A stretch of 44,321 nucleotides of DNA, from positions 1-44,321 of the IMG/VR virus record IMGVR_UViG_3300024331_000116, one strand, 5' to 3'. The first letter of the stretch is position 1; the number at the start of each line of letters is the position of its first letter. Shown in pieces: positions 1,140-44,321 of this stretch. Source of the stretch: a virus. Its lineage: Duplodnaviria; Caudoviricetes. Both the position numbers and the translations under genes were made by a program. Below the pieces are notes generated by a model. The model saw only the letters and a program-made list of their open reading frames with translations, was not told where the DNA came from and made no database searches.

Positions 1140-2513
1140 TCAAAATCCCCAGACCTTGCGCTGCGGGACCACCACTTTGGGCTTCTCCACGGGCGTCACC
1201 AGCTCGGGGAACAGGTCCGAGATCGCCCAGACCAGCGCATCCGCGCGATTGGGGGAGTGTTCGCCCATGAAGCCGTGTGTCGTGAAGCCAAACAACTCGT
1301 CCTCCAGTTCGGGGAAATTGCCCACCAGCCGCACCCTGCCGGTCTCCATGAGGCTCGAGACAGGCTCAGCCCTCACAGCCTTACCGCGGCTCGCGGTGAC
1401 CGCCTTGAACGGCGTACGAGGGCGTGCGGTGTGAATGACGTTCCTCACCATAGCGCCCCCAAAGTTCACTTCCGCGACCACAGTATTTGCCTGATGGCGT
1501 TCGAAAGCCTGGGTGGCGACCTTGCCCCACGTAGCGGGGCCCACCTTGCAGGTGCAGTCCTCGAGGACGTATCCATTACCATCCGTTCCGAGACCGGCGA
1601 CGACGATTCCGATCTCATCGTTGTCGATATTGTCAGTGTCATCGGCACCGGAAGGATCCACGGCCACAACGACCCGGACCATGTCAGGTAAGTGGTCATC
1701 GGTGACCCGCCAGCATTCCAAAACCTCATCGACAAACAGCGCATTCGGCGCGCTCTCGCGAAACTCACCTTCCAAGAATCGCTTGCGTAAGCGCGCTGAA
1801 AGGCCTTCCAGCGTCTTTAGGTAATCCCCACCCAGATTGGGCAGGTTGTCCTTCGGATTCAGCTGCATGCTCGCGTAATTGGACTGATCGACCAATGTAC
1901 GCTTGGTCTCCGGGTCCACCAGCAGCCGAAAGACCTTGTACGACCAATGCCCCTTATCCGGAGGGTTCTCGTCGTAATACATCTTCAGCGGCAAATCACT
2001 CTGCTGCCCCTGCAATGTCTGTTGCACACGCTGCGCAAGGCGAGTGACCGCGATGTTGCGGCTACTCCAGGGGATCTGGCTGCACTCGTTCAGGTGTAGC
2101 GTCACATACTCGTTGCCGAGGATCTTCTCCGTGCGCTCCTTGTCGTCCAGTCCACCGAACCAGTATTCAGATCCATTCGGGAACTGCGCGTACAGATCGG
2201 TCTTGTTGAGCTCGTACTCCGTCCCTGGAAAGCACAGCTTCATCACCTTGGGGAAGGTGTCGAGCACGATCGAGGCTTTGATATGCCCTAACCGATAGCG
2301 TAAGGACGCATGTCGACTACCGGGCGCTTTCAATGCGCGCACGCAGATCGCACGCACGATCAGGAATGTCTTGCCGCTTCTACTGCCGCCAAACAGCATG
2401 ATGTGCTGGGCGGCGCTGGCCAGGAGCCGATTGGCTTCGAGTTGTTTGGGGGTGAGCTTAAAGCCCGGCGTCGTCGTTGCTGATGGTGATGTTGGTAGTG
2501 CCACTGTGCTCAC
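1140..2513 (-). CDS. terL: Terminase large subunit
   Basis: Walker A GGSRSGKT, Walker B-like LHLNECSQ, coupling motif ENPP, and a C-terminal RNase H-like nuclease (VAVDPS...AEVNFGG...SPNRADAL). Confidence 0.95.
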   Translation of the reverse strand: MSTVALPTSPSATTTPGFKLTPKQLEANRLLASAAQHIMLFGGSRSGKTFLIVRAICVRALKAPGSRHASLRYRLGHIKASIVLDTFPKVMKLCFPGTEYELNKTDLYAQFPNGSEYWFGGLDDKERTEKILGNEYVTLHLNECSQIPWSSRNIAVTRLAQRVQQTLQGQQSDLPLKMYYDENPPDKGHWSYKVFRLLVDPETKRTLVDQSNYASMQLNPKDNLPNLGGDYLKTLEGLSARLRKRFLEGEFRESAPNALFVDEVLECWRVTDDHLPDMVRVVVAVDPSGADDTDNIDNDEIGIVVAGLGTDGNGYVLEDCTCKVGPATWGKVATQAFERHQANTVVAEVNFGGAMVRNVIHTARPRTPFKAVTASRGKAVRAEPVSSLMETGRVRLVGNFPELEDELFGFTTHGFMGEHSPNRADALVWAISDLFPELVTPVEKPKVVVPQRKVWGF

Positions 2514-3190: not shown

Positions 3191-3402
3191 TTCCAGTCAG
3201 CACGTACTTTTGCCAGCGCATCGAATGCCTGATCAAGGCCTGCATCCGGCGTTCTGGTTTCGCGCGTCATGGCCTGCATTAACGATTCAGCGCTAAACTG
3301 GATTGGGCCGCCCAATGGTCTCCATCCCTCCCTAATCAATCCTTGGACATGCTGTTTCAGCAGCGTGGGATGACCCTCGATCATGATTTCGTACTCAATC
3401 AC
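3187..3402 (-). CDS. Small DUF1737-like hypothetical protein
   Basis: VQGLIREGWRPLGGP...LMQAM pattern; stop overlaps the start of the groES-like gene. Confidence 0.55.
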   Translation of the reverse strand: MIEYEIMIEGHPTLLKQHVQGLIREGWRPLGGPIQFSAESLMQAMTRETRTPDAGLDQAFDALAKVRADWK

Positions 3403-3524
3403 TTCGCACGCTTCTTCGCACGGTACTGCTCATACGTGGGTTTCTTCGGAGGCTTGACCCCCATGAGTACGGCAAGTGGTGTTGATTTCGCGGACACGTG
3501 TCGAGCCTGTATGAGGTGGATGGA

Positions 3525-3553
3525 AACCTATTCTTTTCGCAGCGTAAACGCAA
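3525..3553 (-). promoter_or_regulatory. Candidate late (pR'-like) sigma70 promoter
   Basis: Minus strand TTGCGT-N17-TAGGTT in the AT-rich gap between the Q-like/HNH genes and the packaging operon. Confidence 0.45.
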
Positions 3554-3620
3554 CAGTTTCAATCGATTTACGCGGAAATAGTGCGTGTTCTCAATGAGGA
3601 AGTTGCACTAACATTATTGT

Positions 3621-4010
3621 TCACGTCGTGTGAACAATAAGAACACTGTTGGTTGAGTTCCACGTGGAACTATGCAACCGACAATGACAAGCCTTGCACA
3701 GCCATATCACATCCAAGGGCTTGGAATAGTCCTCGTGATGCTTCTCGGCCTTGGATGCGCCACACTCCTGGCATGGCTGAGCCTCCAACAGACCACGCCG
3801 CTGATACGTATTCGCGTAGGCGCGAGCATTGGATTTGAACCGCTGCTCGGGCGTCAGCTCCGAATAAGCCTTCCGACTGGCGTTCTGAACGATCCGTTCG
3901 CAGGGCATGCAATACGTCTTTGGAGCTCCACGAGCATTACGGACGCGCGTATGTAAGGCGCAGCAGCGACGACAGATGAAGTCCTCGGGGTAATACTTAT
4001 GCCTGAACAC
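3621..4010 (-). CDS. Zn-finger/HNH-like endonuclease
   Basis: CxxC pairs plus PCQECG...EKHHEDYSKPLDVIWLCKACH. Confidence 0.7.
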   Translation of the reverse strand: MFRHKYYPEDFICRRCCALHTRVRNARGAPKTYCMPCERIVQNASRKAYSELTPEQRFKSNARAYANTYQRRGLLEAQPCQECGASKAEKHHEDYSKPLDVIWLCKACHCRLHSSTWNSTNSVLIVHTT

Positions 4011-4464
4011 GCGCTACCTCCACGGGCCGGCGCGTAATCTCCTGCCCCACCTCAATCCGTCCCAGCAGGAAGTGATAGCCGTTCTCCAGCGCGATGTAGT
4101 ACGGCTTCGGTCGGGGATATCCCAATTCACGTGCCTTACGCAGGACGGTGATCGCCTGGCCTTCATGATCGGATCGTGGCACCACGAAGTGCACGAACAG
4201 CACCCGATGGAGCTCCTCCGGCATCATAGGCAGCTTGCGGATCGCGAGTGAAACCGCGAGTGCATCCTTGGTCATCACCTCCCCAAAACGCTGTCTGAGC
4301 GTGATGGACTTCGCGTCCATGTCGCCCATGTTCGCGCGCTCGAAGCTGGCGACCGAAGGATAGCCTTCCCCATCACTGGTGAGGATCCAGCGCATCGCCC
4401 GTCCCCAGGAGCAGCAGGCTTCCTTCACCCCATCCAACATGGCAGCCGTAGCTGAGTTCATCAT
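3997..4464 (-). CDS. Putative Q-like late antiterminator/transcription regulator
   Basis: 155 aa; WG...GYPS N-terminus and C-terminal HTH-like KARELGY; position just before the late promoter region. Confidence 0.5.
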   Translation of the reverse strand: MMNSATAAMLDGVKEACCSWGRAMRWILTSDGEGYPSVASFERANMGDMDAKSITLRQRFGEVMTKDALAVSLAIRKLPMMPEELHRVLFVHFVVPRSDHEGQAITVLRKARELGYPRPKPYYIALENGYHFLLGRIEVGQEITRRPVEVARVQA

Positions 4465-4769
4465 TGCACCCCGAGCGCGTGGACTCTGTTCAGCGCCGCC
4501 AGCGCTTCACTGACTGAAGTCACCACCGGCGTTTGAGTATCGGCGAGAAATTGATTCTGTTCGGGCTGATCGGTGCGAATCCGCGCTTTAGGCTTCTTGC
4601 CGATGAGCGGTTTGCACTCCAGGGTCTGCCAGCAGAAAAACTGATGTCGGTTGCACCAGAACCGGCAGAGCAAGTCGCACGGCTCCTGGATGACCCAGAC
4701 CTTGATGTGCGCTTCCCGTAAGCCATCCACGATGTAGGTCTGAGTCGCATCTGTCTTGCGGGCCCTCAT
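4461..4769 (-). CDS. PD-(D/E)xK nuclease (VRR-NUC/resolvase-like)
   Basis: RARKTDATQ..IVDGLR...PCDLL...LECK...Q..F...VVTSVSEAL pattern. Confidence 0.65.
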   Translation of the reverse strand: MRARKTDATQTYIVDGLREAHIKVWVIQEPCDLLCRFWCNRHQFFCWQTLECKPLIGKKPKARIRTDQPEQNQFLADTQTPVVTSVSEALAALNRVHALGVQ

Positions 4770-5083
4770 GCGGTTCCCCCCAAGTGATGCGACTCGCAGA
4801 AGTTGCGCGCGAGTTGGGCATCATGGTGGTACCCCAATAACTTCGGCACAGGACTCTGCAAGCTCCAGGCGTAGTACATCAGCGCATCCTTGAGCTTGGT
4901 TCCTCTTAGCTCGTATCGCCCGTCCTGGGTTCTCTGTGTTGCTTTCACGGGCGGCAGCCAAACGAGCTTTCCCTGAGCGGCGGAGCGTTCCTTTAGCAAC
5001 GCCATCATTTGGGCCTGCGTCTTCAGCTTCGGCTCGGGCGGACTCAGAGCGGACTTCGGGTATGGCATTAGGTAAGCGCTCAC
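4766..5083 (-). CDS. Hypothetical protein
   Basis: 105-aa ORF whose stop overlaps the next start codon. Confidence 0.6.
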   Translation of the reverse strand: MSAYLMPYPKSALSPPEPKLKTQAQMMALLKERSAAQGKLVWLPPVKATQRTQDGRYELRGTKLKDALMYYAWSLQSPVPKLLGYHHDAQLARNFCESHHLGGTA

Positions 5084-5103
5084 TTACGGTGTAGACTGTG
5101 CCT

Positions 5104-5124
5104 TGTGGACAAACCTGTGGAAAA
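5104..5124 (-). promoter_or_regulatory. Two tandem DnaA-box-like sites
   Basis: Minus strand TTTTCCACA (5124-5116, matches TTWTNCACA) and TTGTCCACA (5112-5104, 8/9), 3 bp apart, intergenic. Confidence 0.55.
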
Positions 5125-5129
5125 CCTAC

Positions 5130-5390
5130 TCAAACTGATCTGCAGCTTCCCGGAGGCGTTTCTTGAAACGCAGGTGCCGTGTTGCCTTCGAGGTCACTGG
5201 CTAGCGGCTCTGGAGTCTCGGAAAGCAGCGCGAGCTTTTCGCGTAGTCGCTTGCCGATAGCCGTGCACTCGAATTCGCAGGCCGGACACCAGTTGCGAGC
5301 CGACAAACCACGGGCGTAGTGATTGCAGGCCTCGCAGACCCGATACGCCATCGGGCTACCGTGCTTCAGCAACATGATGTCTTCAGTCAT
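5130..5390 (-). CDS. Small Zn-finger hypothetical protein
   Basis: CEAC...WCPAC motifs. Confidence 0.5.
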   Translation of the reverse strand: MTEDIMLLKHGSPMAYRVCEACNHYARGLSARNWCPACEFECTAIGKRLREKLALLSETPEPLASDLEGNTAPAFQETPPGSCRSV

Positions 5391-5569
5391 CGCGAATTGA
5401 CCTCAAATGCTCACGTTGCCACCGCGCCAACCTCGGCTCAGCCCGGAATTTCGCGTGCCGCGACCGCCCTGCTCTGGATCGTTTGGGCTTCGCCTCCGTA
5501 GGTCCCGGCTTCCACGCCCAACCCAACTTTCTGCTCACTCTGACCTCACTCCCCTCCGGCCCCATGCTG

Positions 5570-5996: not shown

Positions 5997-6194
5997 TCAA
6001 GCCACTCGAGTCTCAGCTGCGATGGCTTGCTGCAGTCGCTCGAGCGAACTCAAGCGCGGGTCAGTGACCTCTGCGCGTAGGAACTTGTTCAGCCAGGACG
6101 AGCTCAGGTCATGCTTTCGAGCGAAAGCTTCCTGGGTCAGTTTCCGCTCTTTGAGCGTCTTTTTGAGTTGGCCACGAACGTTATGTAAGTCCAT
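5997..6194 (-). CDS. cro: Cro-like XRE HTH regulator
   Basis: 65 aa, LTQEAFARKHDLSSSWLNKFLR..DPRLSSLERL; divergent from the repressor. Confidence 0.8.
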   Translation of the reverse strand: MDLHNVRGQLKKTLKERKLTQEAFARKHDLSSSWLNKFLRAEVTDPRLSSLERLQQAIAAETRVA

Positions 6195-6205: not shown

Positions 6206-6266
6206 TAGCACAATCGTGCTAGCGTGACAATGCATATGTGTCCGGCAGAATTGCACAATCACGCTA
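6206..6266. promoter_or_regulatory. oR-like operator cluster
   Basis: 16-bp imperfect palindromes TAGCACAATCGTGCTA (6206-6221) and TTGCACAATCACGCTA (6251-6266), plus an inverted TAGCGTGACAATGCAT (6220-6235), between cro and cI. Confidence 0.75.
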
Positions 6267-6289
6267 GAGCGACGCCGTACTTTGGGGAC

Positions 6290-6682
6290 ATGCGGCGCTC
6301 ACGACAACACGAAACCCGCGCGGTGCTCGCCAAGAACTTAAGAATTCTTATGGAGCGTCGCGATTGGACGCAGACGGCTTTGAAGGAAAAGTCGGGGGTG
6401 AGTCAGCGTCACATCAGCAGTCTGCTGAACCAGCAACAGGACTGCACTACAGAAATACTGGCCGGTCTCGCCCTGGCCTTTCGCCTTCCTGGCTGGCTGC
6501 TGCTGGTTGCGGATTTACCCGCTGAACTCTTGGACTCTCAAGATATTCCCCTCTTGATCCAGCGCTACCTGAAGGCCGGGCCCGAAGGTCGCAGCCTGCT
6601 CAATATCATGGCGGAACGTGAATCACATCACAATATTGAGCGATCCACCGTGGTTCCCATAGGTAGCGCCAAGCGCGCATAG
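6290..6682 (+). CDS. CI-like XRE HTH repressor without S24 peptidase domain
   Basis: LAKNLRILMERRDWTQTALKEKSGVSQRHISSLL; flanked by operator repeats on both sides. Start placed at ATG 6290 because the upstream GTG lies in the operators. Confidence 0.8.
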   Translation: MRRSRQHETRAVLAKNLRILMERRDWTQTALKEKSGVSQRHISSLLNQQQDCTTEILAGLALAFRLPGWLLLVADLPAELLDSQDIPLLIQRYLKAGPEGRSLLNIMAERESHHNIERSTVVPIGSAKRA

Positions 6683-9469: not shown

Positions 9470-9774
9470 TGGTCGCCTACCCGGGCATGAAGCGCGCGAC
9501 AGCGGATGAACTGGCGCATTTGGCGGCGGTGAAACAACTGCCCTGCTGCCTGTGCCTGACCGGGATGCAGCGCACGCGCACCGAAGTGCATCATCTGATC
9601 CGCGGCAATAAGCGGCTCGGGCATTTCTACGTGCTGCCCTATTGCCAAGCACATCACGCTAGCGCGCAGTACTACAAACGGCATGAGAAAGCGCTGTGGC
9701 AAAAGCTGAATGATGAGTTGGGAATTGTTCGGGACTGGCCGGTGAGCAAGATCGTACCGAGGGTAGCGATGTGA
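9469..9774 (+). CDS. Ref/DUF968-like Zn-binding HNH nuclease
   Basis: HLAAVKQLPCCLC...TEVHH...VLPYCQAHH. Confidence 0.7.
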   Translation: MVAYPGMKRATADELAHLAAVKQLPCCLCLTGMQRTRTEVHHLIRGNKRLGHFYVLPYCQAHHASAQYYKRHEKALWQKLNDELGIVRDWPVSKIVPRVAM

Positions 9775-10286
9775 GCACGTTAGACGTCCACGAAGCCGCG
9801 GCGTTGGCCAAGTGTCATCCCGACACCATGCGCAAGCTCATGAAGGCGGGTGAGGCACCCGGGGCCAAGATTGGCCGCGCCTGGGTGGTTCGAGAAGAAT
9901 GCATCTTCGATTGGCTACATGGGCTGAAGCTGAAGAAGGCACGCGAGGTGAAAACACCTCGGCGCACTCTCAGGTGGGGAATGGAATGCATTAGCTCATT
10001 CATGCATAACCGCCCAGCACCGCCACGGCCCTCGCCAGAACCGGAAACTCACCGCGAGGCCCTGCAGCGTGCGCTGCCATCCTGGGCTGATGTGGATGCT
10101 ATCCGCGCGATCTACCGCCAAGCGGCAGCGGTAAGTCTCGCGACCGGCATCCCTCATAGCGTGGACCATATCGTCCCCCTTCGAGGCGCGGACGTCTGCG
10201 GGCTTCACGTCGAATTCAACCTGCGCATAATCACGCGCTCTGAGAACTCAGCCAAGTGCAATCGACTGATTGAGGAATTGGTATGA
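9771..10286 (+). CDS. Excisionase-like HTH fused to an HNH endonuclease
   Basis: N-terminal LDVHEAAALAKCHPDTMRKLMKAGEAPGAKIGRAWVV; C-terminal PSWAD...HSVDHIVPLRGADVCGLHVEFNLRIITRSENSAKCN. Confidence 0.8.
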   Translation: MSTLDVHEAAALAKCHPDTMRKLMKAGEAPGAKIGRAWVVREECIFDWLHGLKLKKAREVKTPRRTLRWGMECISSFMHNRPAPPRPSPEPETHREALQRALPSWADVDAIRAIYRQAAAVSLATGIPHSVDHIVPLRGADVCGLHVEFNLRIITRSENSAKCNRLIEELV

Positions 10287-10528
10287 GAGACGTCTACGAG
10301 AAACTGGGCCGCCCTCCTCAGCTGAAGCCCATCGAGGAGTTCTCGATGCGCCAGATGCGCGAGGCCGGCATGACCATCAAGCAGTGCGAGAGCTACTTCA
10401 ACGTCTCGCGCGCCACGGTCTATCGTGTGTTGGCAAAACAACGCCGAATGTTTGGCCCTGAGAAATTGCCGAACGGGCAATTGGCCCGATCACATTTGAC
10501 ACGTCGCGAAACGCAATCCCCGGAATAA
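10283..10528 (+). CDS. Small Hin/resolvase-type HTH DNA-binding protein
   Basis: LGRPP...GMTIKQCESYFNVSRATVYRVL. Confidence 0.7.
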   Translation: MRDVYEKLGRPPQLKPIEEFSMRQMREAGMTIKQCESYFNVSRATVYRVLAKQRRMFGPEKLPNGQLARSHLTRRETQSPE

Positions 10529-10533
10529 TTAGA

Positions 10534-10562
10534 TTGATAAACTTCTGAGACGTCACTATAAT
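10534..10562 (+). promoter_or_regulatory. Near-consensus sigma70 promoter reading through the dif-like site into the XafT-like gene
   Basis: TTGATA (10534-10539), 17-bp spacer, TATAAT (10557-10562). Confidence 0.85.
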
Positions 10563-10564
10563 GT

Positions 10565-10592
10565 TTGCCTCATACTATACATTATGCGCAAC
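10565..10592 (-). mobile_element. dif-like XerC/XerD recombination site (putative attP)
   Basis: Minus strand GTTGCGCATAA-TGTATA-GTATGAGGCAA vs E. coli dif GGTGCGCATAA-TGTATA-TTATGTTAAAT: XerC arm 10/11, spacer 6/6, XerD arm 5/11. Confidence 0.85.
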
Positions 10593-10615
10593 GGGCCAAT
10601 GGCATTGTGGTGTCC

Positions 10616-10987
10616 ATGCTACGACCCGCAGACGTGCTTTATGGTTGGTCCGTCAAGGAGATAGCGCGCATTTGCGAGGTGGATTTGACCACCGCACGCA
10701 GATGGAAGCGTGGGGCCAGGTGCCCGCCCAATTCGGCCCTCATGCTGCTCTCTGGGGACCTGGGATACCTGGATTCCCGGTGGGCTGGCTGGACGATCCG
10801 AAGCGGCGAGATCGTCTCTCCGGAGGGCTGGCGGGCCACCCCCGGCGATGTGCTCTCCATTCAGCTGACGCAGGCTCAGCTCTCGGCCTACCGCAACGAG
10901 AATCGGGCGTTGCGCAAAGCCATCGACGAGATCGAATTCGAAGAGCAACCGACGCCCGGTCAGTGGGAGATCGCGCTCGAGGGCTAA
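10616..10987 (+). CDS. HTH + DUF3653 protein, XafT-like (putative Xer recombination activator)
   Basis: HTH SVKEIARICEVDLTTARRWKRG, then GDLGYLDSRWAGWTIRSGEIVSPEGWRATPGDV (DUF3653 pattern) and a short coiled coil; ATG 23 bp past the dif-like site. Confidence 0.8.
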   Translation: MLRPADVLYGWSVKEIARICEVDLTTARRWKRGARCPPNSALMLLSGDLGYLDSRWAGWTIRSGEIVSPEGWRATPGDVLSIQLTQAQLSAYRNENRALRKAIDEIEFEEQPTPGQWEIALEG

Positions 10988-11509
10988 TTTGCGACCTCGC
11001 TGCGGTGGCGCTGTGAAAATATTTTCACGCCGCGAGTACCAACGCGCCTACTACCGCGACACCGCGCCGCGCCGCCGCAAGCTTGCCCGTGAGCGTCGAC
11101 AACGCCAGCGCTGGGCACCCCGACTGATTGACGCCGTCCTGGCCGAGCTCTCCCGTCCGCTCACTGCGATCGTGCCGCGTGCCCTCCCGATCCGCCACCC
11201 CCTACTTCGCCTGCCCAAGGCCAAGCCATGACCCACCAGCAAGTGTTCTCGATTCTGCTCGCCCTGCTCTTTGTGGGCATCGCGATCGTCATCTGGAACC
11301 GCAAATGACGTGGCTGCTCGCATGGCTTGTGCTGTGCCTGCCAGCGGCGATGTTGGGCAGTGCGCTGATCAGGAGGCGGTTGCGATGATCAAGACGCTGA
11401 TTTTCTCGCCTGTGATTGCGGCCGGCGCGCTGTGGGAGTTGATCTGCACGTACTTTGAGGCGGGGCGAGAGTTTGCGCGAAGACCCAAGTAACAACAACG
11501 AGGCTCAGC

Positions 11510-12970: not shown

Positions 12971-13711
12971 GTGATCCATTACCACGGTCTACCGATGACT
13001 CCGCTGGCTGACATGCTGCGCGCCATGCGCTCGCGGCATGCCATGGTCAGCTATGAGGATCATCGGCAGATCGAGGAAGCCGCGGAGATTTGCCAATCCA
13101 TCGTACTGGACAACGGCGCTTTCTCGGCCTGGCGCGCGGGCCGGGCGCATGACTTCGCTGGCTATCAAGCCTGGGCCACTCATTGGCTCCGACACCCCGC
13201 CGTCGAGTGGTGCGTGATCCCCGACGTGATCGACGGCACAGAGACTCAGAACGATGCCCTCCTCGCTGAATGGACCCTACCGCGGGAGGTCTCGGTCCCC
13301 GTCTATCATTTCCACGAGAGCCTGGAGCGCCTCGAGCGGCTAACAGCCTATCCACGTATCGCGCTGGGCAGCTCGGGTCAGTACGCCGATCCGGGTACCC
13401 CCCCCTGGTGGGGTCGCATGTCTGAAATCATGCGTGTCTTATGCGACGCCGACGGATTCCCTCGCGTGAAACTCCATGGCTTGCGGATGCTCGACTCGGT
13501 GCTGTTCGCGCATATTCCCTTGTCGTCGGCCGACTCCTGCAACGTCGCTCGCAACATCGGCATTGATCAGGCGTGGAGCGGCACCTATACGCCGCGGTCG
13601 AAGTGGGCTCGCGCGCTCGTGATGATGGACCGCATCGAGCACCATGCGAGCGCCCGGCGCTGGGACGGCAGATCAGCCGGAGTGCAACAAAACATGGAGC
13701 TTCTCGGATGA
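12971..13711 (+). CDS. TGT-fold (queuine tRNA-ribosyltransferase/DpdA-like) protein
   Basis: IVLDNGAFSAW, VIPDVIDG, VPVYH, IALG, KLHGL and SSADS motifs in TGT order; RBS AAGGA. Confidence 0.7.
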   Translation: MIHYHGLPMTPLADMLRAMRSRHAMVSYEDHRQIEEAAEICQSIVLDNGAFSAWRAGRAHDFAGYQAWATHWLRHPAVEWCVIPDVIDGTETQNDALLAEWTLPREVSVPVYHFHESLERLERLTAYPRIALGSSGQYADPGTPPWWGRMSEIMRVLCDADGFPRVKLHGLRMLDSVLFAHIPLSSADSCNVARNIGIDQAWSGTYTPRSKWARALVMMDRIEHHASARRWDGRSAGVQQNMELLG

Positions 13712-19850: not shown

Positions 19851-20107
19851 TTGCGTAACAGCACAATGATGGCCACGGCGATGCTCGGGATCAATCCAGC
19901 GGCAAAACCCCACACGCCTGATTTCAGTTTCAACTCGGTCTCCAAGACGGCTACCTTAATTTTAAGCTCAGATACTTGATTGATGGCCGCCGTGTTCATG
20001 GATTCGATTTTGTTCTGCAGCTTCTCCAGCAGATCATTGAGCCGCTGGATCTCCTTGACCGTGAGGCTGCGATACTCCGCAACGTCAGTCTGATTGCGAC
20101 TGGCCAT
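19847..20107 (-). CDS. Coiled-coil protein with C-terminal TM (holin/XhlA-like)
   Basis: Heptads then GVWGFAAGLIPSIAVAIIVLLRK; overlaps the endolysin start. Confidence 0.6.
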   Translation of the reverse strand: MASRNQTDVAEYRSLTVKEIQRLNDLLEKLQNKIESMNTAAINQVSELKIKVAVLETELKLKSGVWGFAAGLIPSIAVAIIVLLRK

Positions 20108-20522
20108 TGACAACACGCCTGACGAGAGCAAGGCCTAAAATCCCTTGGGCTGAGACAACTGGCCCGATGCTGATCTGTACAATGATGGTGCGCCCATTAC
20201 GATGTAACCCCGCAAGCGCCTTGGCCAGATTCATCGGCCTCACGGACGGATGCTCAAAGAACTTCGCAATGTGCTGAGCATGCTGACCCCCTAGATCAGC
20301 CGGGATCAGCATATGAACGGGCTCCCCGATCAACCGTGACCGGGGATACCCGAAGAGCAACTCGATCTGCTGATTGACATGCTGGATGATCCCGCCTTCA
20401 TTGATCACCAACAGACCGTCCGGTAACGCATCCAGAATCTGCGCGAAGGCGTCCGGATCAACGATGAGCTGTTCTGTCAGCTTGTCGTTGATCTCCTTCA
20501 GCCGATCGAGAGACTCAGTCAT
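20085..20522 (-). CDS. Stand-alone FixL-like PAS domain protein
   Basis: ILDALPDGLLVINEGGIIQHVNQQIELLFGY...LIGEPVHMLIP...HAQHIAKF...GLHRNGRTIIVQISIG. Confidence 0.88.
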   Translation of the reverse strand: MTESLDRLKEINDKLTEQLIVDPDAFAQILDALPDGLLVINEGGIIQHVNQQIELLFGYPRSRLIGEPVHMLIPADLGGQHAQHIAKFFEHPSVRPMNLAKALAGLHRNGRTIIVQISIGPVVSAQGILGLALVRRVVNGQSQSD

Positions 20523-20523
20523 C

Positions 20524-20715
20524 TCAGCAGTGCACAGCAACTGTCGGCATTGCCGCCATGAAACTGGTCTCGCCATCGGTCCAATCCGCCAGTCCCTTGA
20601 CGTTGATATCATCGATACGATCGCGACATGCCTGAGGCAATGCGCCGTAGATCGCCGGATCGTTGACTGCTGTTTTGATCGCCGCTCTCTGATTTATGAT
20701 GCCGCCTGCGCCCAT
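20524..20715 (-). CDS. Hypothetical protein
   Basis: 63 aa; RBS AAAGGA; tightly packed with its neighbours. Confidence 0.55.
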   Translation of the reverse strand: MGAGGIINQRAAIKTAVNDPAIYGALPQACRDRIDDINVKGLADWTDGETSFMAAMPTVAVHC

Positions 20716-27720: not shown

Positions 27721-28136
27721 GGATTATCCTCTTCGAGCAACAGGCTTTCCGGCTCAACTAATTGCAATTCCAAAGTCTCGATATCCGTCTCTCGCGTGGC
27801 ATGCACTGTCGTCCAAACGGTATCCTCATGCGCCAAACCCACTCGTTTGGTACCGGGCCTTGAAACCATGGTAAAAGGGGCGGCAACCCGCTTCATTCCT
27901 TCTTCGGTCCATACTGTAATGACACCCTGCGAAACAATGTTCAAATGCTCCGCTCGATGAATGCGACCGGTGAGCAAACATCCTTTCGGAATGAAAATCT
28001 CGCGGGCATATAAACCTTCGGCGAAATAATGAGTGGTACGAATATCAACACGGACTCCCAACCGACGCATTTCATCTTCGAGTCGCTGAATCTGCTCACG
28101 AGTGGGTACTGCAGGGATCTGTATGAGTTCGTTCAT
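27708..28136 (-). CDS. Cupin-like protein of the tail module
   Basis: HYFAEGLYAREIFIPKG.LLTGRIH...SRPGTKRVG.AHEDTVWTTVH. Confidence 0.7.
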   Translation of the reverse strand: MNELIQIPAVPTREQIQRLEDEMRRLGVRVDIRTTHYFAEGLYAREIFIPKGCLLTGRIHRAEHLNIVSQGVITVWTEEGMKRVAAPFTMVSRPGTKRVGLAHEDTVWTTVHATRETDIETLELQLVEPESLLLEEDNPCLS

Positions 28137-28948
28137 CGAGGGAAAAACGTCAGCGCGGGTGCATTCGTGTAGGTAATCCGTACATGATCGTTCGGCACCA
28201 CCTGAATCGGCCCCTGCACAATGCCCATGGGAAACCACGTCACAGCGTCTTTGCTGTACTCAATCAAGCTGACCGGCCCTCCTGCGACCAGCAATGAGCC
28301 CTGCACTACTGCTGTGAACACAAAGGGCGAAGCCGTCACTGTCACCGTCGCCGGTTGAGTCGCGTTGACGCCGAACGCCTGTTGAGAGACGTTCAGCAGG
28401 AAACGCCACCAGTTGGTGGCAATCACTCCGCGCTCATCGACCAACGCATTGTTGGGCGGCAGGATGGTGTTGGGTAGATTCGGTGGCTTTGAGCTGCTGG
28501 TCGGCATAACGGTCGGACTGGGAACGCCTGTAGAGATGACAATGTTGACCGAGCCCCCAATCACAATGGGAGCGCTGAAAGCCGGCGATTGGGACGCAAT
28601 GATTCCAACCGGATAGGCGGTGTTGGACGCGAACGAGACCGTACCTAAGAACAAGCCCGCATTCTGCAAAATGGCGATTGCCGCCGCTTGGGTCAGCCCC
28701 ACCAGTTGGGGGGTCGCTTCGAAGACCAGCGGCCCCTGCAGAACGACCGGGAGGTTATTCGGTCTCCAGGGTCGAGCATCGACCTGTGGTTCAATGAACG
28801 TCTGCGACGGAGGCGCATATCGAATATCAGCCGTGCCCAGCAGCACGATCAGGAACAGACTTGCAGCGCGGCCCTGTTGCGTCAGTATCCGGACGCCGTT
28901 GTCGATGATCTCCGCACGAGAGGAAATGACAACGGTCGGGTCAGACAT
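28133..28948 (-). CDS. Tail protein: shared N-terminal module + PASTA domain + conserved small tail-protein C-terminus
   Basis: PQLVGLTQAAAIAILQNAGL...PVGIIASQSP...GGSVNIVISTG is PASTA-like; N-terminus is paralogous to that of 28952..30916. Confidence 0.7.
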   Translation of the reverse strand: MSDPTVVISSRAEIIDNGVRILTQQGRAASLFLIVLLGTADIRYAPPSQTFIEPQVDARPWRPNNLPVVLQGPLVFEATPQLVGLTQAAAIAILQNAGLFLGTVSFASNTAYPVGIIASQSPAFSAPIVIGGSVNIVISTGVPSPTVMPTSSSKPPNLPNTILPPNNALVDERGVIATNWWRFLLNVSQQAFGVNATQPATVTVTASPFVFTAVVQGSLLVAGGPVSLIEYSKDAVTWFPMGIVQGPIQVVPNDHVRITYTNAPALTFFPR

Positions 28949-32369: not shown

Positions 32370-33794
32370 TCAGCCCGTGAAGCACTGGCCGGCGAAACTG
32401 ACCGGGCATGCGGTGTTGGTGATCGCATTGGCGTTGATAAAGGGAACGATCTTAGTGCTCCAGTCGTAATTGGTGCCCACGACGTAGGTCCACAGAAAGT
32501 AAGAACATCGCAATGTTTGAGCGGAGGCAAAGTTGTCAGCGGGCGTCTTGGTCGGGAAATGGGTGTAGGTCGCTTGCTGGGCAAACCCGATACAGGGAAT
32601 GCTGTTGCGATAATCGGTACCACCCGGAGTAAATCCGGAGCCATTCCACCGATTTCCCATATAGACATTCTGGCCCATGGTCGGAAATCCATTGGCCGCT
32701 GTGGGATAGACATCGGGACTCGACATCGCGGCTGCCGGACCTGCCACCGCGAGGTTATCCACGATCCCGTTGATCGTCAGTGCGTTCGCGATGACATAAT
32801 TGATCTGCGGACCTACGATGGTGTGCGGCCATGCCGCCACCATGCGCTGAACCTGGATGTTGAAATTGTTGGCGAAATTCGTGCTGTTGTAGTCGGAGCC
32901 TGCCTGCAGGTTGAGGGAGGTCTCCTGATTGAACACGAATTCAATCAGCGGATGCGTATCGAACGTGAACGTCTGACCGCTGTAAGGACCGGAAGTGGTC
33001 ACGAACGAGGTCGTGGCCAGATGCTCGAACATCCGCGTATAGCGATCATTGACGTTGGTACGCCAGATCGCCGCACAGGCACCCGATTGACCGCTACCAA
33101 AATCCTGATTCCAATAGCCGAAGTGAACGCCATCCGAGCCGGGACCGTAGATGGAGTTGTTGAGGATGTAGGCTGGCGTACCCAGTCCTGTTGCCCCGGT
33201 TCCGGTGAACTTCTCGCACCAAATCATGGGCCCGAAGCGTTTGCCCGGTGCCTTGGACTGCAGGTAATTGAAATCTGAAATGATGCTGGAGAAATCGTAT
33301 CCGCCATCCGTCGGTTCCAGATGGTCCCAGGTATAGATCGGCTGATAGCCCGCGACATTGGCACCTGAGGCCGCCAGAACGTTGATCTCGTTCTGGTTGC
33401 GTCCATTACCACTCACACTGTCGCCGTTGATATTGTTCGAGCCCATCCAGTGCTTGGGATGCCACTTGATCTGACCGGTCGGCGGCGGAAACACATTGGT
33501 TTGCAGGGTCGTCGCCGCCGTGACCGGTGAAGGTGGCCCCTCGCCGAACGTATTGATGGCCGCAACCGTGAAATTGTAGGTCGTGGCCGGCGCTAATCCG
33601 GTGAAATTCGCAGCCGTGCCCGGCAGCGTCACCACCGGATTGCCGAACATCCGCACCGTGTAGTTCTGTGCTCCCGCGATCGGCGTCCACGTGAGATCGA
33701 TCTCGCTCGAGCTGATGACGGTCGCCACTACCCCCGTCACCGGGGCGGGCGTCTGGGGAAAGGTCCCCAGCGTGCGGATGAAGCTGACCTTCAT
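32370..33794 (-). CDS. FN3 domain + clan-A-like glycoside hydrolase TIM barrel
   Basis: SSSEIDLTW...GLAPATTYNFTVAAINTFGEG (FN3); YTWDHLEPTDGGYDFS...TPAY...FDTHPLIEFVFNQETS. Confidence 0.65.
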   Translation of the reverse strand: MKVSFIRTLGTFPQTPAPVTGVVATVISSSEIDLTWTPIAGAQNYTVRMFGNPVVTLPGTAANFTGLAPATTYNFTVAAINTFGEGPPSPVTAATTLQTNVFPPPTGQIKWHPKHWMGSNNINGDSVSGNGRNQNEINVLAASGANVAGYQPIYTWDHLEPTDGGYDFSSIISDFNYLQSKAPGKRFGPMIWCEKFTGTGATGLGTPAYILNNSIYGPGSDGVHFGYWNQDFGSGQSGACAAIWRTNVNDRYTRMFEHLATTSFVTTSGPYSGQTFTFDTHPLIEFVFNQETSLNLQAGSDYNSTNFANNFNIQVQRMVAAWPHTIVGPQINYVIANALTINGIVDNLAVAGPAAAMSSPDVYPTAANGFPTMGQNVYMGNRWNGSGFTPGGTDYRNSIPCIGFAQQATYTHFPTKTPADNFASAQTLRCSYFLWTYVVGTNYDWSTKIVPFINANAITNTACPVSFAGQCFTG

Positions 33795-33982
33795 AGACCC
33801 TGGACGCTCGCGACCTGGACAAGTCCGGGACACCCCAGCAGCGCGATCACCGTCTTGGACTGCTTCAGCTTGTCCTGTGAAATCTCAGGGTACCAATTGA
33901 TGGTCTCCTGGCGGTCCTGGTAGGGGTCGGGGGCCGTGTAGGACGCCCCGACGAACCCAAAGTCGTTATTCGCTTGGGGCAT
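33791..33982 (-). CDS. Detached N-terminal segment of the gp10-like protein
   Basis: FGFVGASYTAPDPYQDRQETINWYPE...ALLGCPGL resembles gp10-family N-termini; RBS GAGGA. Confidence 0.7.
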   Translation of the reverse strand: MPQANNDFGFVGASYTAPDPYQDRQETINWYPEISQDKLKQSKTVIALLGCPGLVQVASVQGL

Positions 33983-34040: not shown

Positions 34041-36365
34041 TCAGTTGGGCGAACAGCCGATCTGCAACACGTCGCTGGCCGTCCATGCTCCGGCCACGCC
34101 AGTCGTGCGCACGTAATTCGTGAAGGTGGCCGTAGTCGTGGATGAGCCGGTTTGCTGTGTGAGGTTGGTTGCGGGGGTCGTGACATCAGCGCTACTGCAC
34201 GCCCATCCGTGGGCGGCTAATGGAAGCGCTATAACGCCAGTGGAGGCCGCGCCCCCTGTCCCCACATTGACTGAAAAACTCGCCGGCCCCTTGTTCGCCG
34301 TGATGGACGGAGACGTTCCGAATCCGCTTGAGATCGTGGGCGTCGTGTTGATGGCAGGAGTACTCAGTCCATAGTAGGTCGTTTGATTCTGATAAATGGC
34401 CTGAATCTGCGCCGGGCTGAGCGAACCGTCGTACCCGGCAGATGTGGAAACGGGTTTGGAAATTCCGTAGACAACGGCTTCCGCAATATCCCCGGTCATC
34501 ACCCGAAATGCGCTCGTGCAATTCGCCCCGAAGGAGCCTGAGAAGAGACTCTCGAAGCTTGAACTGCTGCTGAAATATAGAAAGTTTCCGTTTCCGCCCG
34601 TGACAGCCGGCAGAGAGTTATCGACTTGAAACGACAGATCGCCGTTAGCGGCGGTCGTCAGATTATTCTGTCCGATGGCGACATGCCATGCGCTATCGGC
34701 AGCGGTTAGACTGACATCAATCCCGCTGTTGGATGTATGCAGGGCCATTGTATTGACCGATGCCGGGAACCGTATGTCCGGCCCGTTCCCTCCAAGGGCT
34801 ATCCCGATGCCCCCTGTTCCCCCTGTGCGTTTTGCAACCACATTCGCAGTCCATGATGGACCGACCGCAGTCAATCCCGCTGCTCCGTTCGTGCACATAT
34901 ACTGTGTGCCGGTGGAGCGCATGGCGGTGCGATTGTTGAAGTCGTTGAAGATCAACTGCGGCTGAAGGGCTGTCGTCACCTGCACCATATCAAAGGTAGT
35001 GCCTTTGCCGTCATTCGACTGATATCCGATTGACTGGTTATATAGCGTGGCAACCGTGCATGTTGTGCCTGAGCAAAATGCTTGCGCGGCGTTATCGTCA
35101 AAATCCCCAGTGGCGGTGAATCCGACATTCAACGTCGTACTATCACTGGCGCGGCGTATCGTGGCCGCATAGCCGGTGTAAGATGCTCGCAGGCGTCGCA
35201 GCCCCCACGCCCCGCCGACTGCCGCGACAAGATTCCGTTTGACATTGCTTGCGCATAGTGTGCCACCGCAGTTCCCGTTGTTGTACGCCAGATCAACTGG
35301 ACCTAAATAGGTCTTTGAGGGCGTCGCATAGAACGCCGAGACATTCGCCGCTAGGAGCGCATCGGTCGCTGCGCTGGTATACCCCGAAGCAATCGCCCCT
35401 TCAAAGAATTCGGCTGGCGCGGATGATCCGTCCCCGCCCTCGCCCAAAGAAATTCCCGCTTGAACCACTTCCGTTTGCGGTGGCGGCTGCTGCACTAGAG
35501 CGGCGAGTATTCCCGTGCTGACATCCCAAAACTTATCGAAATAAATGTTGGTGGCACCATTGTATTTACTCAGGTATCCGGCCACCGCCGGAACAGTCGC
35601 TAGCGCGGTCGTCGGGAAATTGGGGGCTTCCATATCGATCCCCAACCCAATTCCTCCGCTCAAAGTGTTACCGGTCCAGTTGTTATAGCCCAGCTCCCAC
35701 GAAGCACCCGACAAATACGGGCCGCTGATATTGTTCTCTGCACGACCATAGTTACCGCAACACGCGCTGAAGATGCTCATTCCCTCGACGGCGTAGGTCG
35801 TCGCAGAAGCGGTGCCAGTGGGAATATTAGTGGTAGCTCCGCCGCTTGCGGGCCGGTTGCGGTAAAAGGCCGCATTGGCTGCCGTTACGACGCTAGGATA
35901 GCCGTTCGCGCCGTATAGAAACCAAGGCGCCATATTGGCGACCGTGGCTTGCGGCAAATGATTGGCATTGCCAGTTTGATCGTAGATATTACTGATGTAG
36001 CAACTGGTACCCGCGCAGAAAGTGGCCACGGCTGCGGAATCGTAAAGGCCGGTTGAGACCGTACTGATATCGCTTGTCGTCGAATCGGACGCGCGGGTGA
36101 GCTGGAAAATCCTCCCCGTATAGCTCGCAAACATCCGGCGAGTGAGACTATGAGCAGCAACGCAGGTCTGACCGCCCTTAGCAATCACATCGCATGGCCC
36201 CAATGCCGTAGCGGCTAATGCCGCCGTCTGCGGGCTGTTCAGCGCACTCGGCGCCGCCGTCGAGCCGCTGGAGTTGCCGAGGAGGGTGCCGGAGGGTATG
36301 ACGCTCGTCGTCCCGGCTGCCTGCGCGAGCAGCGGACAGAGCAGGAGCGCAATCAGTATTCTCAC
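34041..36365 (-). CDS. Signal-peptide protein with a GH54 alpha-L-arabinofuranosidase B-like domain plus a second divergent copy
   Basis: MRILIALLLCPLLAQA; GPCDV...TCVAAHSLTR...YDQTGNANHL...CCGNYGRAE...IDME...GEGGDGS...FFEG; second unit GAWGLRRLRASYTG...RRASDSTT...FC...LYNQS. Confidence 0.8.
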   Translation of the reverse strand: MRILIALLLCPLLAQAAGTTSVIPSGTLLGNSSGSTAAPSALNSPQTAALAATALGPCDVIAKGGQTCVAAHSLTRRMFASYTGRIFQLTRASDSTTSDISTVSTGLYDSAAVATFCAGTSCYISNIYDQTGNANHLPQATVANMAPWFLYGANGYPSVVTAANAAFYRNRPASGGATTNIPTGTASATTYAVEGMSIFSACCGNYGRAENNISGPYLSGASWELGYNNWTGNTLSGGIGLGIDMEAPNFPTTALATVPAVAGYLSKYNGATNIYFDKFWDVSTGILAALVQQPPPQTEVVQAGISLGEGGDGSSAPAEFFEGAIASGYTSAATDALLAANVSAFYATPSKTYLGPVDLAYNNGNCGGTLCASNVKRNLVAAVGGAWGLRRLRASYTGYAATIRRASDSTTLNVGFTATGDFDDNAAQAFCSGTTCTVATLYNQSIGYQSNDGKGTTFDMVQVTTALQPQLIFNDFNNRTAMRSTGTQYMCTNGAAGLTAVGPSWTANVVAKRTGGTGGIGIALGGNGPDIRFPASVNTMALHTSNSGIDVSLTAADSAWHVAIGQNNLTTAANGDLSFQVDNSLPAVTGGNGNFLYFSSSSSFESLFSGSFGANCTSAFRVMTGDIAEAVVYGISKPVSTSAGYDGSLSPAQIQAIYQNQTTYYGLSTPAINTTPTISSGFGTSPSITANKGPASFSVNVGTGGAASTGVIALPLAAHGWACSSADVTTPATNLTQQTGSSTTTATFTNYVRTTGVAGAWTASDVLQIGCSPN

Positions 36366-39574: not shown

Positions 39575-40936
39575 TTACCCCGCGATCCGATAGCCCATCT
39601 GTCGATACAGAGAGCTGAAGCCGTACAACACGTCCATACGGGTCGGTTCGGCGTCGTTGTTGATGGTGTACTGAGTCGCGATCCGGATCGCCAAACCCAA
39701 CTCTTCGTCCCGTGCCCGGTAGGCTTCTACTGCGGTTCGCGGCAGCGGAAGATCCGCAAAGGCCAGCGCATAGGCGTCCCTGTGGAACAGCAGCCCTTGA
39801 GGTGAGACCGTCGTGGCCGCTGCCGCTGCATTCACCGTGAGGGTGTAGGGAGAGACGGGGGCCGCGGTGCAGTTCTGGAACTGACCGCCATAGATCACGC
39901 ATTCCGCCACGGTCAGCGTCAGTGCGCCCGCACCCGAGCCGGACGTATAGACCCCGGTCGTGGCGTTGAACGTGCCGTTGGCGAGCGTTGCGGCCGCAAA
40001 GGCCGGACCACCGGGAACAGCCGCACCGGACATCGGGGCATAGCCTGCCGGCGGAAGCACTACGAACTGCTTGAGCGCCTTGCCGTACTGCGCGCGGTTC
40101 TGCGGATTGACCGGGTAGACACCCTTAATGGTGAGGACATCCCCGACCGTGATCACGGCTGTGGAGGCCGTCCAGCCGGTGGTGAATAGCGTTCCCGTCC
40201 CGGCCCAGCCGGTCGACATGATCGCGGTTCCGCCGGTTGCCGCGGTATTTCCTGCCAAGACTGGTGTTCCGAGCGTACCGAGTGCGGTCTGATTGGCAAT
40301 GTTCTGGTCTTCGAACCAGTCAGAGCCGGCAGTCTTGCGCGCCACCATGCCGGTCTCGAAGTTATCCGAGATCTTGGCCTGGGGATTGAAGAGTCCTTTC
40401 AGCGCATCGGCCATGGAGCTCATCGAGAGCGGATCCAGCACGACCGAGGGCGTCATGTTCTTCGGTGCGCCCTCAAAGGCGAGGATGGCGCGGGCGTCCG
40501 AGAACGCCTTGAAGGACGTGGGTGCGGTGCCGAAGGTCCCACCCTGCAGGGGCGTGTTCTGGAAGCCGAAATAGGCTCCGTCCGAATCAATGCGGTTGCC
40601 GATCGCCGCGCAGGCCGGTTCGATGAACCGCTCTTTGAAGCGGGCGATATCCAGCAGCAGGTTCACGGTGTTGAACTGGATGTCCACGTGAAACTGATAG
40701 TTCAGCGAGACCGGAACGTAGGTCTCGACCGAGGGCTCGACGTTCAGTGCCGGCCCAAAGGTGCCGAAGTACCGGGGCGGACGCCGGATATTCACAGTCG
40801 CGCCGATTTGCGCGTCTTTGTTCCCGAATTCGTCCGAATACTGACGGTTGAATTTATCCGTCAGGACGCATGTGTTACTCAACACCGGCAAAGCGGTATT
40901 GGTGATCATGCTGATGGTCAGCAGTTGATTGGCCAA
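39575..40936 (-). CDS. Major capsid protein (P22 gp5-like)
   Basis: MANQLLTISMIT...IGATVNIRRP...FHRDAYALAFADL...RMDVLYG; TTG start with RBS AGGAG. Confidence 0.92.
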   Translation of the reverse strand: MANQLLTISMITNTALPVLSNTCVLTDKFNRQYSDEFGNKDAQIGATVNIRRPPRYFGTFGPALNVEPSVETYVPVSLNYQFHVDIQFNTVNLLLDIARFKERFIEPACAAIGNRIDSDGAYFGFQNTPLQGGTFGTAPTSFKAFSDARAILAFEGAPKNMTPSVVLDPLSMSSMADALKGLFNPQAKISDNFETGMVARKTAGSDWFEDQNIANQTALGTLGTPVLAGNTAATGGTAIMSTGWAGTGTLFTTGWTASTAVITVGDVLTIKGVYPVNPQNRAQYGKALKQFVVLPPAGYAPMSGAAVPGGPAFAAATLANGTFNATTGVYTSGSGAGALTLTVAECVIYGGQFQNCTAAPVSPYTLTVNAAAAATTVSPQGLLFHRDAYALAFADLPLPRTAVEAYRARDEELGLAIRIATQYTINNDAEPTRMDVLYGFSSLYRQMGYRIAG

Positions 40937-42648: not shown

Positions 42649-42840
42649 TCAGGCAGTTGCATTGCGCTTTAACTCCGCTTCATAGCCGGCCAGCGCATTG
42701 ACCGCGGCACGCACCGCATCGCGCTGAACAATCAACTCATCGTATCGAGTGGGGTCTTTGCGGATCGCGAGCATCAATGCTTCTGCGGCGGCTACCGAGG
42801 ATTTCAGTTGCTGCAGACGCGTGATATCAGGCGGCGCCAT
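42649..42840 (-). CDS. Small helical hypothetical protein
   Basis: 63 aa overlapping the portal end. Confidence 0.5.
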   Translation of the reverse strand: MAPPDITRLQQLKSSVAAAEALMLAIRKDPTRYDELIVQRDAVRAAVNALAGYEAELKRNATA

Positions 42841-44321
42841 TGCTCTTTTCCGCCTTCTCAGCGGCTTGTGCGGTGATGTGCACCAATTCCTTCTCGTGCG
42901 TACGGTCCTGGTTGCTGTCGATCAGCTTGGCGCCCGCATTGATTTCGGCGACACCGATCGAGGTATGCGCCTTGACATCGGTGTCGTATTTCTTAACGCC
43001 CGTATCGAGCAGTGTGTCGTGCTCGGCGCGTTTGTCGTGCAATTCTTCGATCTGCAGTTTGGTGGCATCGGCGTGCAATTGCTTGGTGATACCGTGCTTG
43101 AGGTCCATCTCCTGCTCTCGCACCTTGGAGGTCAGCTGCTGAACCTGGGATTGCAACTGCGTGATGATCGTCTTGGCCTGTTCCGGTAGCGTCTCGACGA
43201 TCTTCTTCATCTCCTCGGGGATCTGCGTCGCCAAACGATCGGCCAACTGCTCGGAGTACGCCGTATCGGTTGCTCGCAACACCAGGTCTCCACCTTTCTG
43301 CGCAATGACTTCGCCCAACGGCGTCTTCATCAGCCCGATCAGCGTGTCCGCGCCCTCCTTGCGCTTGGTGTCGTAGCCCGGCCCAGTATCCATCACGACC
43401 GCATATTCACCCACCGTCACATCGTTCTTGATGGCTTGTACGCCGGGATCGATGGAGCGCTCATTCAGCTTCACCATCTGAGGCTTGCCGTCCTCGCTGA
43501 TGATCCGCTGCATGCGCTCGGTGCTGTAGGTCACGGGAATCCAGTCCAAGATCAGTCGGCCCACGAAATCGATCATGAGCATCTGGTTGTCGTAGTATTG
43601 GAAGTGACTGATGTCGGCGAGTTCACGTCTTTCGCGTAACGCCAGCCCTGAGATCACCTCGCCCTTCACATCCTGACCCGGATCATGGGGTTGGCCGGCC
43701 ATGGCCATCAGTCCGCTGTAGGCGCTCTGCATGGCTTCCGACATGCCCTGCTCGACTGGGGCGGGCTGCTGTTTGGTGGGCAGCGGCAAGGTCTCGCCAT
43801 TCGGGCCTTGGATGGCCTTACCCACCAGTACCGAATGGGCTTTCCGGTTGGCGTCGTGCCATTCCGGATGGCCTTCGATCACGCCCTCGTATGCGGTCCA
43901 CTCGGCTTTGGGCGCCAGAGCCAACCGCTCGGTCTTCATGGTCTCCCAGTAGTTGACCATGCGAGCCGGCTCCATAAGGTTCGCAACCATTCCTTTGCGC
44001 GACCGCTTACCGTTGATGTCCAGGGTCTTGCCCTGGCAGCAGGCGATGGGGATGTACCGACCCGGAAGCACACGACGATCAATGATCTTGCGACCGTTCA
44101 GTCGGTACCACTCGACCTGACGCAAACTCGATGGACGCTCGACCGCAACCTCTTTGCCGTCCTTCTTCTCCACCGCGAAGTTGTGCTTTCGAGGGTCTTT
44201 AAGTGCGGTCTTCAGCACACCGGGTTGGAAGTCACTCTCGAGGCGAGTCGTGTTATCCGCCATCTTGAAGAGGCGCTCGGGCTTCTCCACGATGCGAAAG
44301 TACTCGGCCAAGCGAATCTCG
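42827..44321 (-). CDS. P22-like portal protein, C-terminal part
   Basis: LPGRYIPI...GMVANLMEPARMVNY...SGLALRER...YSTERMQRII...VGEYAVVMDTGPGYDTKR; C-terminal coiled coil. Confidence 0.92.
   Translation of the reverse strand, partial: EIRLAEYFRIVEKPERLFKMADNTTRLESDFQPGVLKTALKDPRKHNFAVEKKDGKEVAVERPSSLRQVEWYRLNGRKIIDRRVLPGRYIPIACCQGKTLDINGKRSRKGMVANLMEPARMVNYWETMKTERLALAPKAEWTAYEGVIEGHPEWHDANRKAHSVLVGKAIQGPNGETLPLPTKQQPAPVEQGMSEAMQSAYSGLMAMAGQPHDPGQDVKGEVISGLALRERRELADISHFQYYDNQMLMIDFVGRLILDWIPVTYSTERMQRIISEDGKPQMVKLNERSIDPGVQAIKNDVTVGEYAVVMDTGPGYDTKRKEGADTLIGLMKTPLGEVIAQKGGDLVLRATDTAYSEQLADRLATQIPEEMKKIVETLPEQAKTIITQLQSQVQQLTSKVREQEMDLKHGITKQLHADATKLQIEELHDKRAEHDTLLDTGVKKYDTDVKAHTSIGVAEINAGAKLIDSNQDRTHEKELVHITAQAAEKAEKSNGAA
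43884..44321. repeat. Terminal direct repeat, copy 2
   Basis: Matches 1-438 with 13 substitutions. Confidence 0.97.

Follow-up and report, generated by a model that had tools for sequence, protein, structure and literature searches.

The locus described here raises the question of how a tailed phage that encodes no integrase enters the chromosome of its host. The DNA analysed, hereafter the window, comprises all 44,321 nucleotides of the IMG/VR virus record IMGVR_UViG_3300024331_000116, from a tailed soil phage. A previous sequence-only reading had proposed that a P22-like phage has replaced its integrase with a module of the type carried by the TLC satellite phage of Vibrio cholerae, and this interpretation was supported, since every prediction testable at sequence level (homology, lack of an integrase, conservation, and bounded chromosomal elements) held. 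We consider it probable, on sequence grounds, that the phage integrates at the chromosomal dif site of its host, where chromosomes are unlinked, via the XerC and XerD recombinases of that host; for its XafT-like protein we predict an FtsK-independent activation of XerD, like that of the TLC satellite. The relevant features are listed in Table 1.

Table 1. Position, strand and supporting evidence of the features of the window.
Feature	Position	Strand	Evidence or remark
Terminase large subunit	1140..2513	-	Pfam/family matches
cI-like repressor gene	6224..6682	+	Pfam HTH_3; phrog_3 transcriptional repressor, E 3e-6
Excisionase-like HTH_17 fused to endonuclease-like domain	9771..10286	+	Scores below excisionase cut-off
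Resolvase-type HTH (HTH_7) gene standing alone, 81 aa; lies on XerD-arm side; may serve as regulator or accessory factor	10283..10528	+	Pfam HTH_7, E 1.2e-10
Two copies of short palindromic operator-like motif	10497-10507, 10546-10556 (within 10497..10556)	.	Third copy at 10990-11000
Strong sigma-70 consensus match (11/12) directed across the site; not conserved with the cassette	10534..10562	+	6/63 loci vs 2.9 in shuffles
dif-like site, candidate attP	10565..10592	-	XerC arm 10592-10582; spacer 10581-10576; degenerate XerD arm 10575-10565
Extended -10 element TG-N-CATTGT (predicted), its end 7 nt ahead of start codon; adjoins XerC arm	10600..10608	+	Sequence
XafT-like gene, 123 aa: HTH, DUF3653 beta-hairpin and long helix	10616..10987	+	Pfam, NCBIfam, hhalign, structure model
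P22-like coat protein	39575..40936	-	Domain match
P22-like portal	42827..44321, continuing at 3-1094 across the 438-bp terminal overlap	-	Domain matches and overlap

The terminase large subunit, portal and coat protein expected of a tailed dsDNA phage with a P22-like head were all identified, in agreement with the phage type assigned previously. The genome had also been described as apparently complete, and the ends of the record indeed overlap by 438 bp (425 identical, with no amino-acid differences in 145 portal codons) and close into a circle of approximately 43.9 kb; the IMG/VR record is itself classed as linear and 95% complete. None of the 13 mismatches between positions 1–438 and 43884–44321 changes an amino acid in the portal frame, a pattern suggestive of two strain variants assembled together. 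The cI-like repressor gene, with a small divergent ORF at 5997–6194, supports a temperate lifestyle. Primase, helicase and replication initiator families had no match anywhere in the window, including the region 3343–5565, and the replication genes of the phage are therefore unrecognised; partition and plasmid replication families were not matched in the window either. Odd cargo was observed at 20085–20612, 34041–36749, 32370–33833, 28133–28948 and 12971–13711, comprising a PAS-domain protein, an alpha-L-arabinofuranosidase B-like domain, fn3 and PASTA domain proteins, and a queuine tRNA-ribosyltransferase-like gene.

A six-frame search of the window with PF00589, PF00239 and PF07508 gave no matches to any of them, as expected from the reported absence of an integrase, and recombinase or transposase catalytic domains were not detected by a Pfam scan of all 274 stop-to-stop frames of at least 75 aa. 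The lack of an own integrase and the carriage of a dif-like attP are two of the marks of an IMEX, an element that integrates through host Xer, and both apply to the window, whose genome circle closes. The excisionase-like HTH reported previously is present, but its identity as an excisionase did not stand, since it is fused to an endonuclease-like domain and scores below the excisionase cut-off. The reading that the site stands where int would follow xis is corrected in that the separate HTH_7 gene lies between this putative xis and the site.

The candidate attP is a 28-bp site reading GTTGCGCATAA-TGTATA-GTATGAGGCAA on the minus strand (10592–10565), found where it had been reported. The earlier counts of 10 of 11 matching bases in the XerC arm and 5 of 11 in the XerD arm hold against the E. 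coli dif sequence, which also occurs in records of the searched databases. The XerC arm plus spacer (17 bp) had its sole match in the window, at up to three mismatches, in the site itself, with one mismatch; the chance expectation for such a match was 0.06, and one was present in 6 of 100 shuffles. The XafT-like ORF begins 23 bp from the XerC arm, the distance given previously. The XerD arm of the window retains G at position 5 (G5). A TLC-type attP has an intact XerC arm, a spacer compatible with dif and a degenerate XerD arm in which base 1 or 5 is kept, and the site of the window has all of these.

Among 55 distinct sites, the inner seven XerC-arm bases and the spacer were conserved, and in most of them the six-base spacer was identical to dif at all positions, which would permit a full crossover. 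The XerD-arm positions other than 5 matched dif in 22–67% of the sites, whereas position 5 was G in 52 of the 55; after clustering of the proteins, G5 was retained in 39 of 42 clusters at 90% identity and in 14 of 15 at 70%. This conserved column was noticed before the XafT base rule was known to the analyst: XafT was reported to integrate nearly any attP in which base 1 or 5 of the XerD arm matches dif, base 5 being the most important (Miele et al., PMC9226527).

The protein encoded by ORF 10616–10987 matched Pfam DUF3653 (E 6.7e-8, 33 bits, cut-off 22.4), together with weak HTH models, and NCBIfam NF040522, the VC1465/XafT family, with E 1.2e-11 and 44.6 bits, below the 70-bit cut-off; the proteins of three relatives scored 41–46 bits against the latter model. 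The predicted similarity to DUF3653 and XafT was therefore confirmed, above the cut-off for the domain and below it for the family, and by its sequence the protein is a XafT homolog, not a curated family member. An alignment of 73 sequences of its relatives matched TLC VC1465 with hhalign (94.8% probability, E 5e-8), covering both the HTH and the hairpin, and the fusion of HTH to DUF3653 that characterises the XafT family is present in the window protein. Its best matches in a phage database were VCY, VFJ and VGJ-type ORF136/XafV-like proteins (E 0.003–0.04), with TLC XafT at E 0.1; as judged from these scores, whose differences are all marginal, it is no nearer to TLC XafT than to the VGJ-type ORF136/XafV-like proteins. 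No tailed phages were among the 16 GenBank phage records matched. The PHROGs label of its family is 'tail assembly protein'. The monomer model had a pLDDT of 78 and a pTM of 0.36, and a fold search with it retrieved nothing at E ≤0.001 in PDB or BFVD; the predicted complex of a Steroidobacteraceae XerD with two XafT-like copies (score 0.02, mark 0.32) weighs neither way.

The XafT-like gene has homologs in 22 viral records and in 80 metagenome loci, of which one is the contig of the window itself. In every one of the 22 viral records, the 120 nt upstream of the homolog contain a dif-like site; so do those of 72 of the 79 other metagenome loci, compared with 7 of 2086 random stretches. Some of these loci are duplicates, and the thresholds were set after viewing the data. 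The XerC arm lies next to the gene in 20 of the viral records, and the site is flipped in two. All 14 viral records that are at least 90% complete carry TerL or a major head protein (5 match Terminase_6N and the remaining 9 a PHROG terminase or major head protein, with 106 of 119 long frames submitted), so the conservation of site and gene in related tailed phages that had been predicted was observed. These near-complete relatives show several head types and include podovirus-like records and one with a tape-measure gene. A tyrosine recombinase was detected in one of the 22 viral records and a resolvase-family gene in two; neither PF00589 nor PF00239 was found in 11 of the 14 near-complete records, the other three having a recombinase. 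In one genome (G005), a 280-aa tyrosine recombinase (L001:942–1784) is encoded approximately 6.4 kb from the intact cassette of the same locus.

A flipped cassette, in which an intact XerD-like arm faces the gene at near-equal spacing and the XerC arm is degenerate, was present in six loci (L009, L017, L109, L118, L126 and L127). In three Gammaproteobacteria MAGs (L024:9986–11446, L025:8769–10303 and L026:8686–10354), a close xafT-like gene (45–52% identity) is the immediate neighbour of a gene for a XerC-like recombinase, and no dif site is near. A separate xerC is encoded elsewhere in G001 and G002, and these loci may be islands with their own XerC plus activator.

The HTH_7 gene was upstream of the site in all 63 distinct regions, that of the window counted, and the distance from site to start codon was 22–25 bp in 61 of 61 loci tested. 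No Shine-Dalgarno-like motif precedes the xafT-like gene in any of 65 cases, and 53 of 61 relatives have a YAnnnT hexamer whose end lies 6–8 nt ahead of the start codon, compared with 4.3 of 65 in shuffles, for a pattern chosen post hoc. Together they suggest that the xafT transcript is likely leaderless and starts beside the XerC arm, from a promoter that would abut this Xer arm. Of 63 loci, 38 have the short palindrome no more than 150 nt from the site, compared with 1.1 in shuffles (also a post hoc pattern); the motif was not enriched over the whole window (11 copies, 15.2 expected). That integration silences xafT by severing it from the strong promoter upstream does not hold as a general rule, this promoter occurring in 6 of 63 loci compared with 2.9 in shuffles.

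Chromosomal forms of the cassette were searched for in MAGs and viral records. In seven MAGs, the chromosome contains elements of approximately 0.8–1.6 kb in which an intact dif and a XerD-degenerate one flank a xafT-like homolog (L304 in G350, L305 in G381, L306 in G063, L277, L278, L281 and L283); G5 was retained in four of the seven, and the elements are in tandem in G350 and G589. A larger element of 17.6 kb (L364:699–18292) was located in a 5.45-Mb contig (G161:C1); one of its ends is an intact dif, and the opposite end is a XerD-degenerate copy that retains G5. It encodes TerL, a SU10-like portal, capsid, adaptor and tail proteins, an integrase was not matched in its 48 frames, and core host genes were identified on both sides (32 of 75 long flank frames scanned). 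The gene beside its intact dif matches the family in the HTH half only, with no DUF3653 or NF040522 match, and the HTH_7 gene is absent from the element; it therefore supports the lifestyle, not the exact cassette, and may represent a phage of small size, the remnant of one or a satellite. The identity between its two ends runs approximately 18 bp beyond the XerC arm. Octamers like the KOPS motif of E. coli point inward from both of its flanks (3 vs 0 and 0 vs 4).

No full prophage of the clade of the window was found at dif; the expected chromosomal elements between an intact and a XerD-degenerate dif were seen in more distant relatives, as the seven elements of about 1 kb and the 17.6-kb element. 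The integrated form was seen in none of the 22 viral records and in one of the 79 metagenome loci (L088), where, next to a close homolog (53%), the dif that occupies exactly the cassette position is intact and a 67-bp flank is unlike the phage loci, forming a short candidate junction. For the phage of the window, no host junction was found in the contigs of four of five sequencing runs. A loose end at 10573 in X1 was rejected as a host junction, as it matches the upstream sequence of a related phage (L057). Genome searches for prophages of the clade returned distant homologs only, in 25 of 401 genomes of the order of the Steroidobacteraceae and 10 of 401 genomes of a class sample, all at E 1e-25 or weaker. 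Among 120 viral loci with an intact dif, only weak family matches were obtained, all in records below 15 kb, and DUF3653 was found in none of the 12 searched out of 13 larger intact-dif viral records; 40 loci retrieved with two spaced patterns contained no new homolog. The HTH_7 profile matched none of 85 genomes of the family of G161, and a single HTH_7 protein used as query retrieved no viral locus. Several records of 34–36 kb that end near an intact dif and lack DUF3653 (L203, L240, L246, L271 and L273, in G827, G831, G832, G834 and G835), with a terminase in 2 of 5 and a weak tyrosine recombinase match in 4 of 5, are a different group of elements at dif.

With respect to the host, 30 of 80 phage XerC arms were identical to an arm in gammaproteobacterial MAG loci. 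The exact XerC arm of the window was not among the 10 host arms seen, so its host is inferred, and it is probably a soil gammaproteobacterium of the order of the Steroidobacteraceae.

The combination of no integrase, a half-degenerate dif and a XafT relative in a shared cassette points to a likely entry into the chromosome via host XerC and XerD. In the proposed mechanism, which would be XerD-first and independent of FtsK, XerC would bind the intact arm and XerD would bind the degenerate arm weakly, through the conserved G5, while the XafT-like protein would stabilise the synapse between attP and dif and trigger a full crossover in the shared 6-bp spacer. The product would have an intact dif next to xafT and a XerD-degenerate copy at the far end of the prophage, which is proposed to limit FtsK-driven excision. 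As the leaderless xafT transcript would begin beside the XerC arm, Xer occupancy could also tune xafT.

Integration at dif could alternatively follow a XerC-first route, in which a XafV-like protein boosts a XerC-made junction that is resolved by replication or repair. The order of the phage-database matches, with VCY, VFJ and VGJ-type proteins ahead of TLC, agrees with it, as do the six flipped loci and the properties of XafV, which adjoins attP and was reported to act only on XerC-initiated reactions (bioRxiv 10.64898/2026.06.12.731946). Nevertheless, those similarity differences are all marginal, most sites share all six spacer positions with dif, by which a full crossover is permitted, and G5 is selectively retained as reported for XafT-driven reactions (PMC9226527); this route is considered unlikely. 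The site might instead be used on the free phage genome, where host Xer would resolve multimers or maintain a plasmid-like prophage as a monomer; the HTH_7 protein would then be the accessory factor and the palindromes its accessory sequence. Nearly all loci of the clade are unintegrated, the HTH_7 gene and palindromes are conserved beside the site, and plasmid Xer sites are described as having accessory proteins (PMC6744903). However, partition and plasmid replication families are unmatched in the window, related cassettes sit inserted at chromosomal dif, and free phage contigs would be expected to dominate such collections in any case, which makes this use, if anything, a shade less probable than the XerC-first route.

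It is very improbable that no recombination takes place and that the dif mimic only binds host Xer or HTH proteins, regulating a small transcription factor. The fixed spacing of the start codon in all 61 loci, the -10-like hexamer in 53, the PHROGs tail assembly label and the example of PSB15, which shows other jobs for DUF3653 (bioRxiv 10.1101/2024.03.19.585677), would fit such a role, but a conserved 6-bp spacer is needless for binding alone, integrases are missing from temperate-looking genomes, and integrated products exist for members of the family.

Compared with known systems, the proposed XerD activation at dif by a XafT-like protein is closest to the TLC satellite and its XafT (VC1465), which likewise has no integrase and an attP with intact XerC and degenerate XerD arms (PMC6744903, PMC9226527); its HTH and DUF3653 gene is on the XerC side, as in the window (PMC6744903), and the conserved G5 of the window fits the sequence rule published for XafT (PMC9226527). 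On the other hand, the window is a 44-kb tailed dsDNA phage and TLC a rolling-circle satellite, the window protein has approximately 28–30% identity to TLC XafT, below the family cut-off, and its cassette adds the conserved HTH_7 gene and palindromes, whereas TLC was reported to need no XerD-side sequence (PMC6744903). Legionella phage LME-1 is likewise short-tailed, carries a dif mimic and integrates at host dif, leaving one intact and one altered site, but it uses a single recombinase, XerL, and whether it encodes an activator is left open in its description (PMC9765430, PMC12407071); the window has a XerC/XerD-type site and a XafT homolog. The dif-type double jelly-roll prophages (P15/P16) and CTX-I inoviruses of Vibrio were described as sharing a lysogeny module, a XafT-like gene, that has moved among phage groups without close relationship, non-tailed dsDNA phages that use dif and carry the XafT-like P15 included (PMC12715192); the records with the module of the window type, by contrast, are podovirus-like, and one has a tape-measure gene. 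The statement of the sequence-only reading that IMEX phages are filamentous phages and their satellites was therefore incomplete, as double jelly-roll phages (PMC12715192) and the podophage LME-1 (PMC9765430, PMC12407071) use dif too.

Two further proteins are related in sequence. XafV (VGJ ORF136) is an activator that adjoins attP and has weak sequence matches to the window protein, but it was reported to serve XerC-initiated reactions of filamentous phages and to be unable to integrate a TLC-type attP (bioRxiv 10.64898/2026.06.12.731946). PSB15 of Xanthomonas filamentous phages has DUF3653 like the window protein, but is described as lacking a fused HTH, binding the filamentous packaging signal and being dispensable for integration (bioRxiv 10.1101/2024.03.19.585677); the phage of the window has a terminase-portal packaging system, to which that packaging job would not apply.

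XafT modules in the TLC satellite, inoviruses and non-tailed dsDNA prophages, as well as a tailed phage at dif (LME-1, with XerL), are already described. A literature search, in a library that lacks most subscription papers, retrieved none that treats a XerCD/XafT cassette of tailed phages, and the 250 DUF3653 genome matches in the supplement of PMC6744903 could include tailed prophages. More tentatively, a portable three-part lysogeny cassette of HTH_7 gene, site and xafT-like gene may have replaced int and xis across unrelated tailed soil phages, a scheme that we regard as possible but rather doubtful. It would form a self-regulating Xer switch, with the level of the leaderless xafT-like gene set by recombinase occupancy and the HTH_7 protein on the flanking palindromes acting as a directionality factor that the phage supplies for host XerCD; integration would send the HTH_7 gene and xafT to opposite prophage ends, and flipped versions would target the other recombinase.

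The natural phage sites independently reproduce the fifth-G rule of the XafT mutational scan. Dozens of divergent activator and site pairs, flipped ones included, are now at hand for studying XerD or XerC activation and the excision trigger, which was named as future work in PMC9226527. If integration at dif via XerC and XerD is true, a DUF3653 gene together with a dif-like site would be a simple marker for these phages, and a group of tailed phages whose missing integrase would lead lifestyle predictors to class them as virulent or plasmid-like would be temperate and occupy dif.
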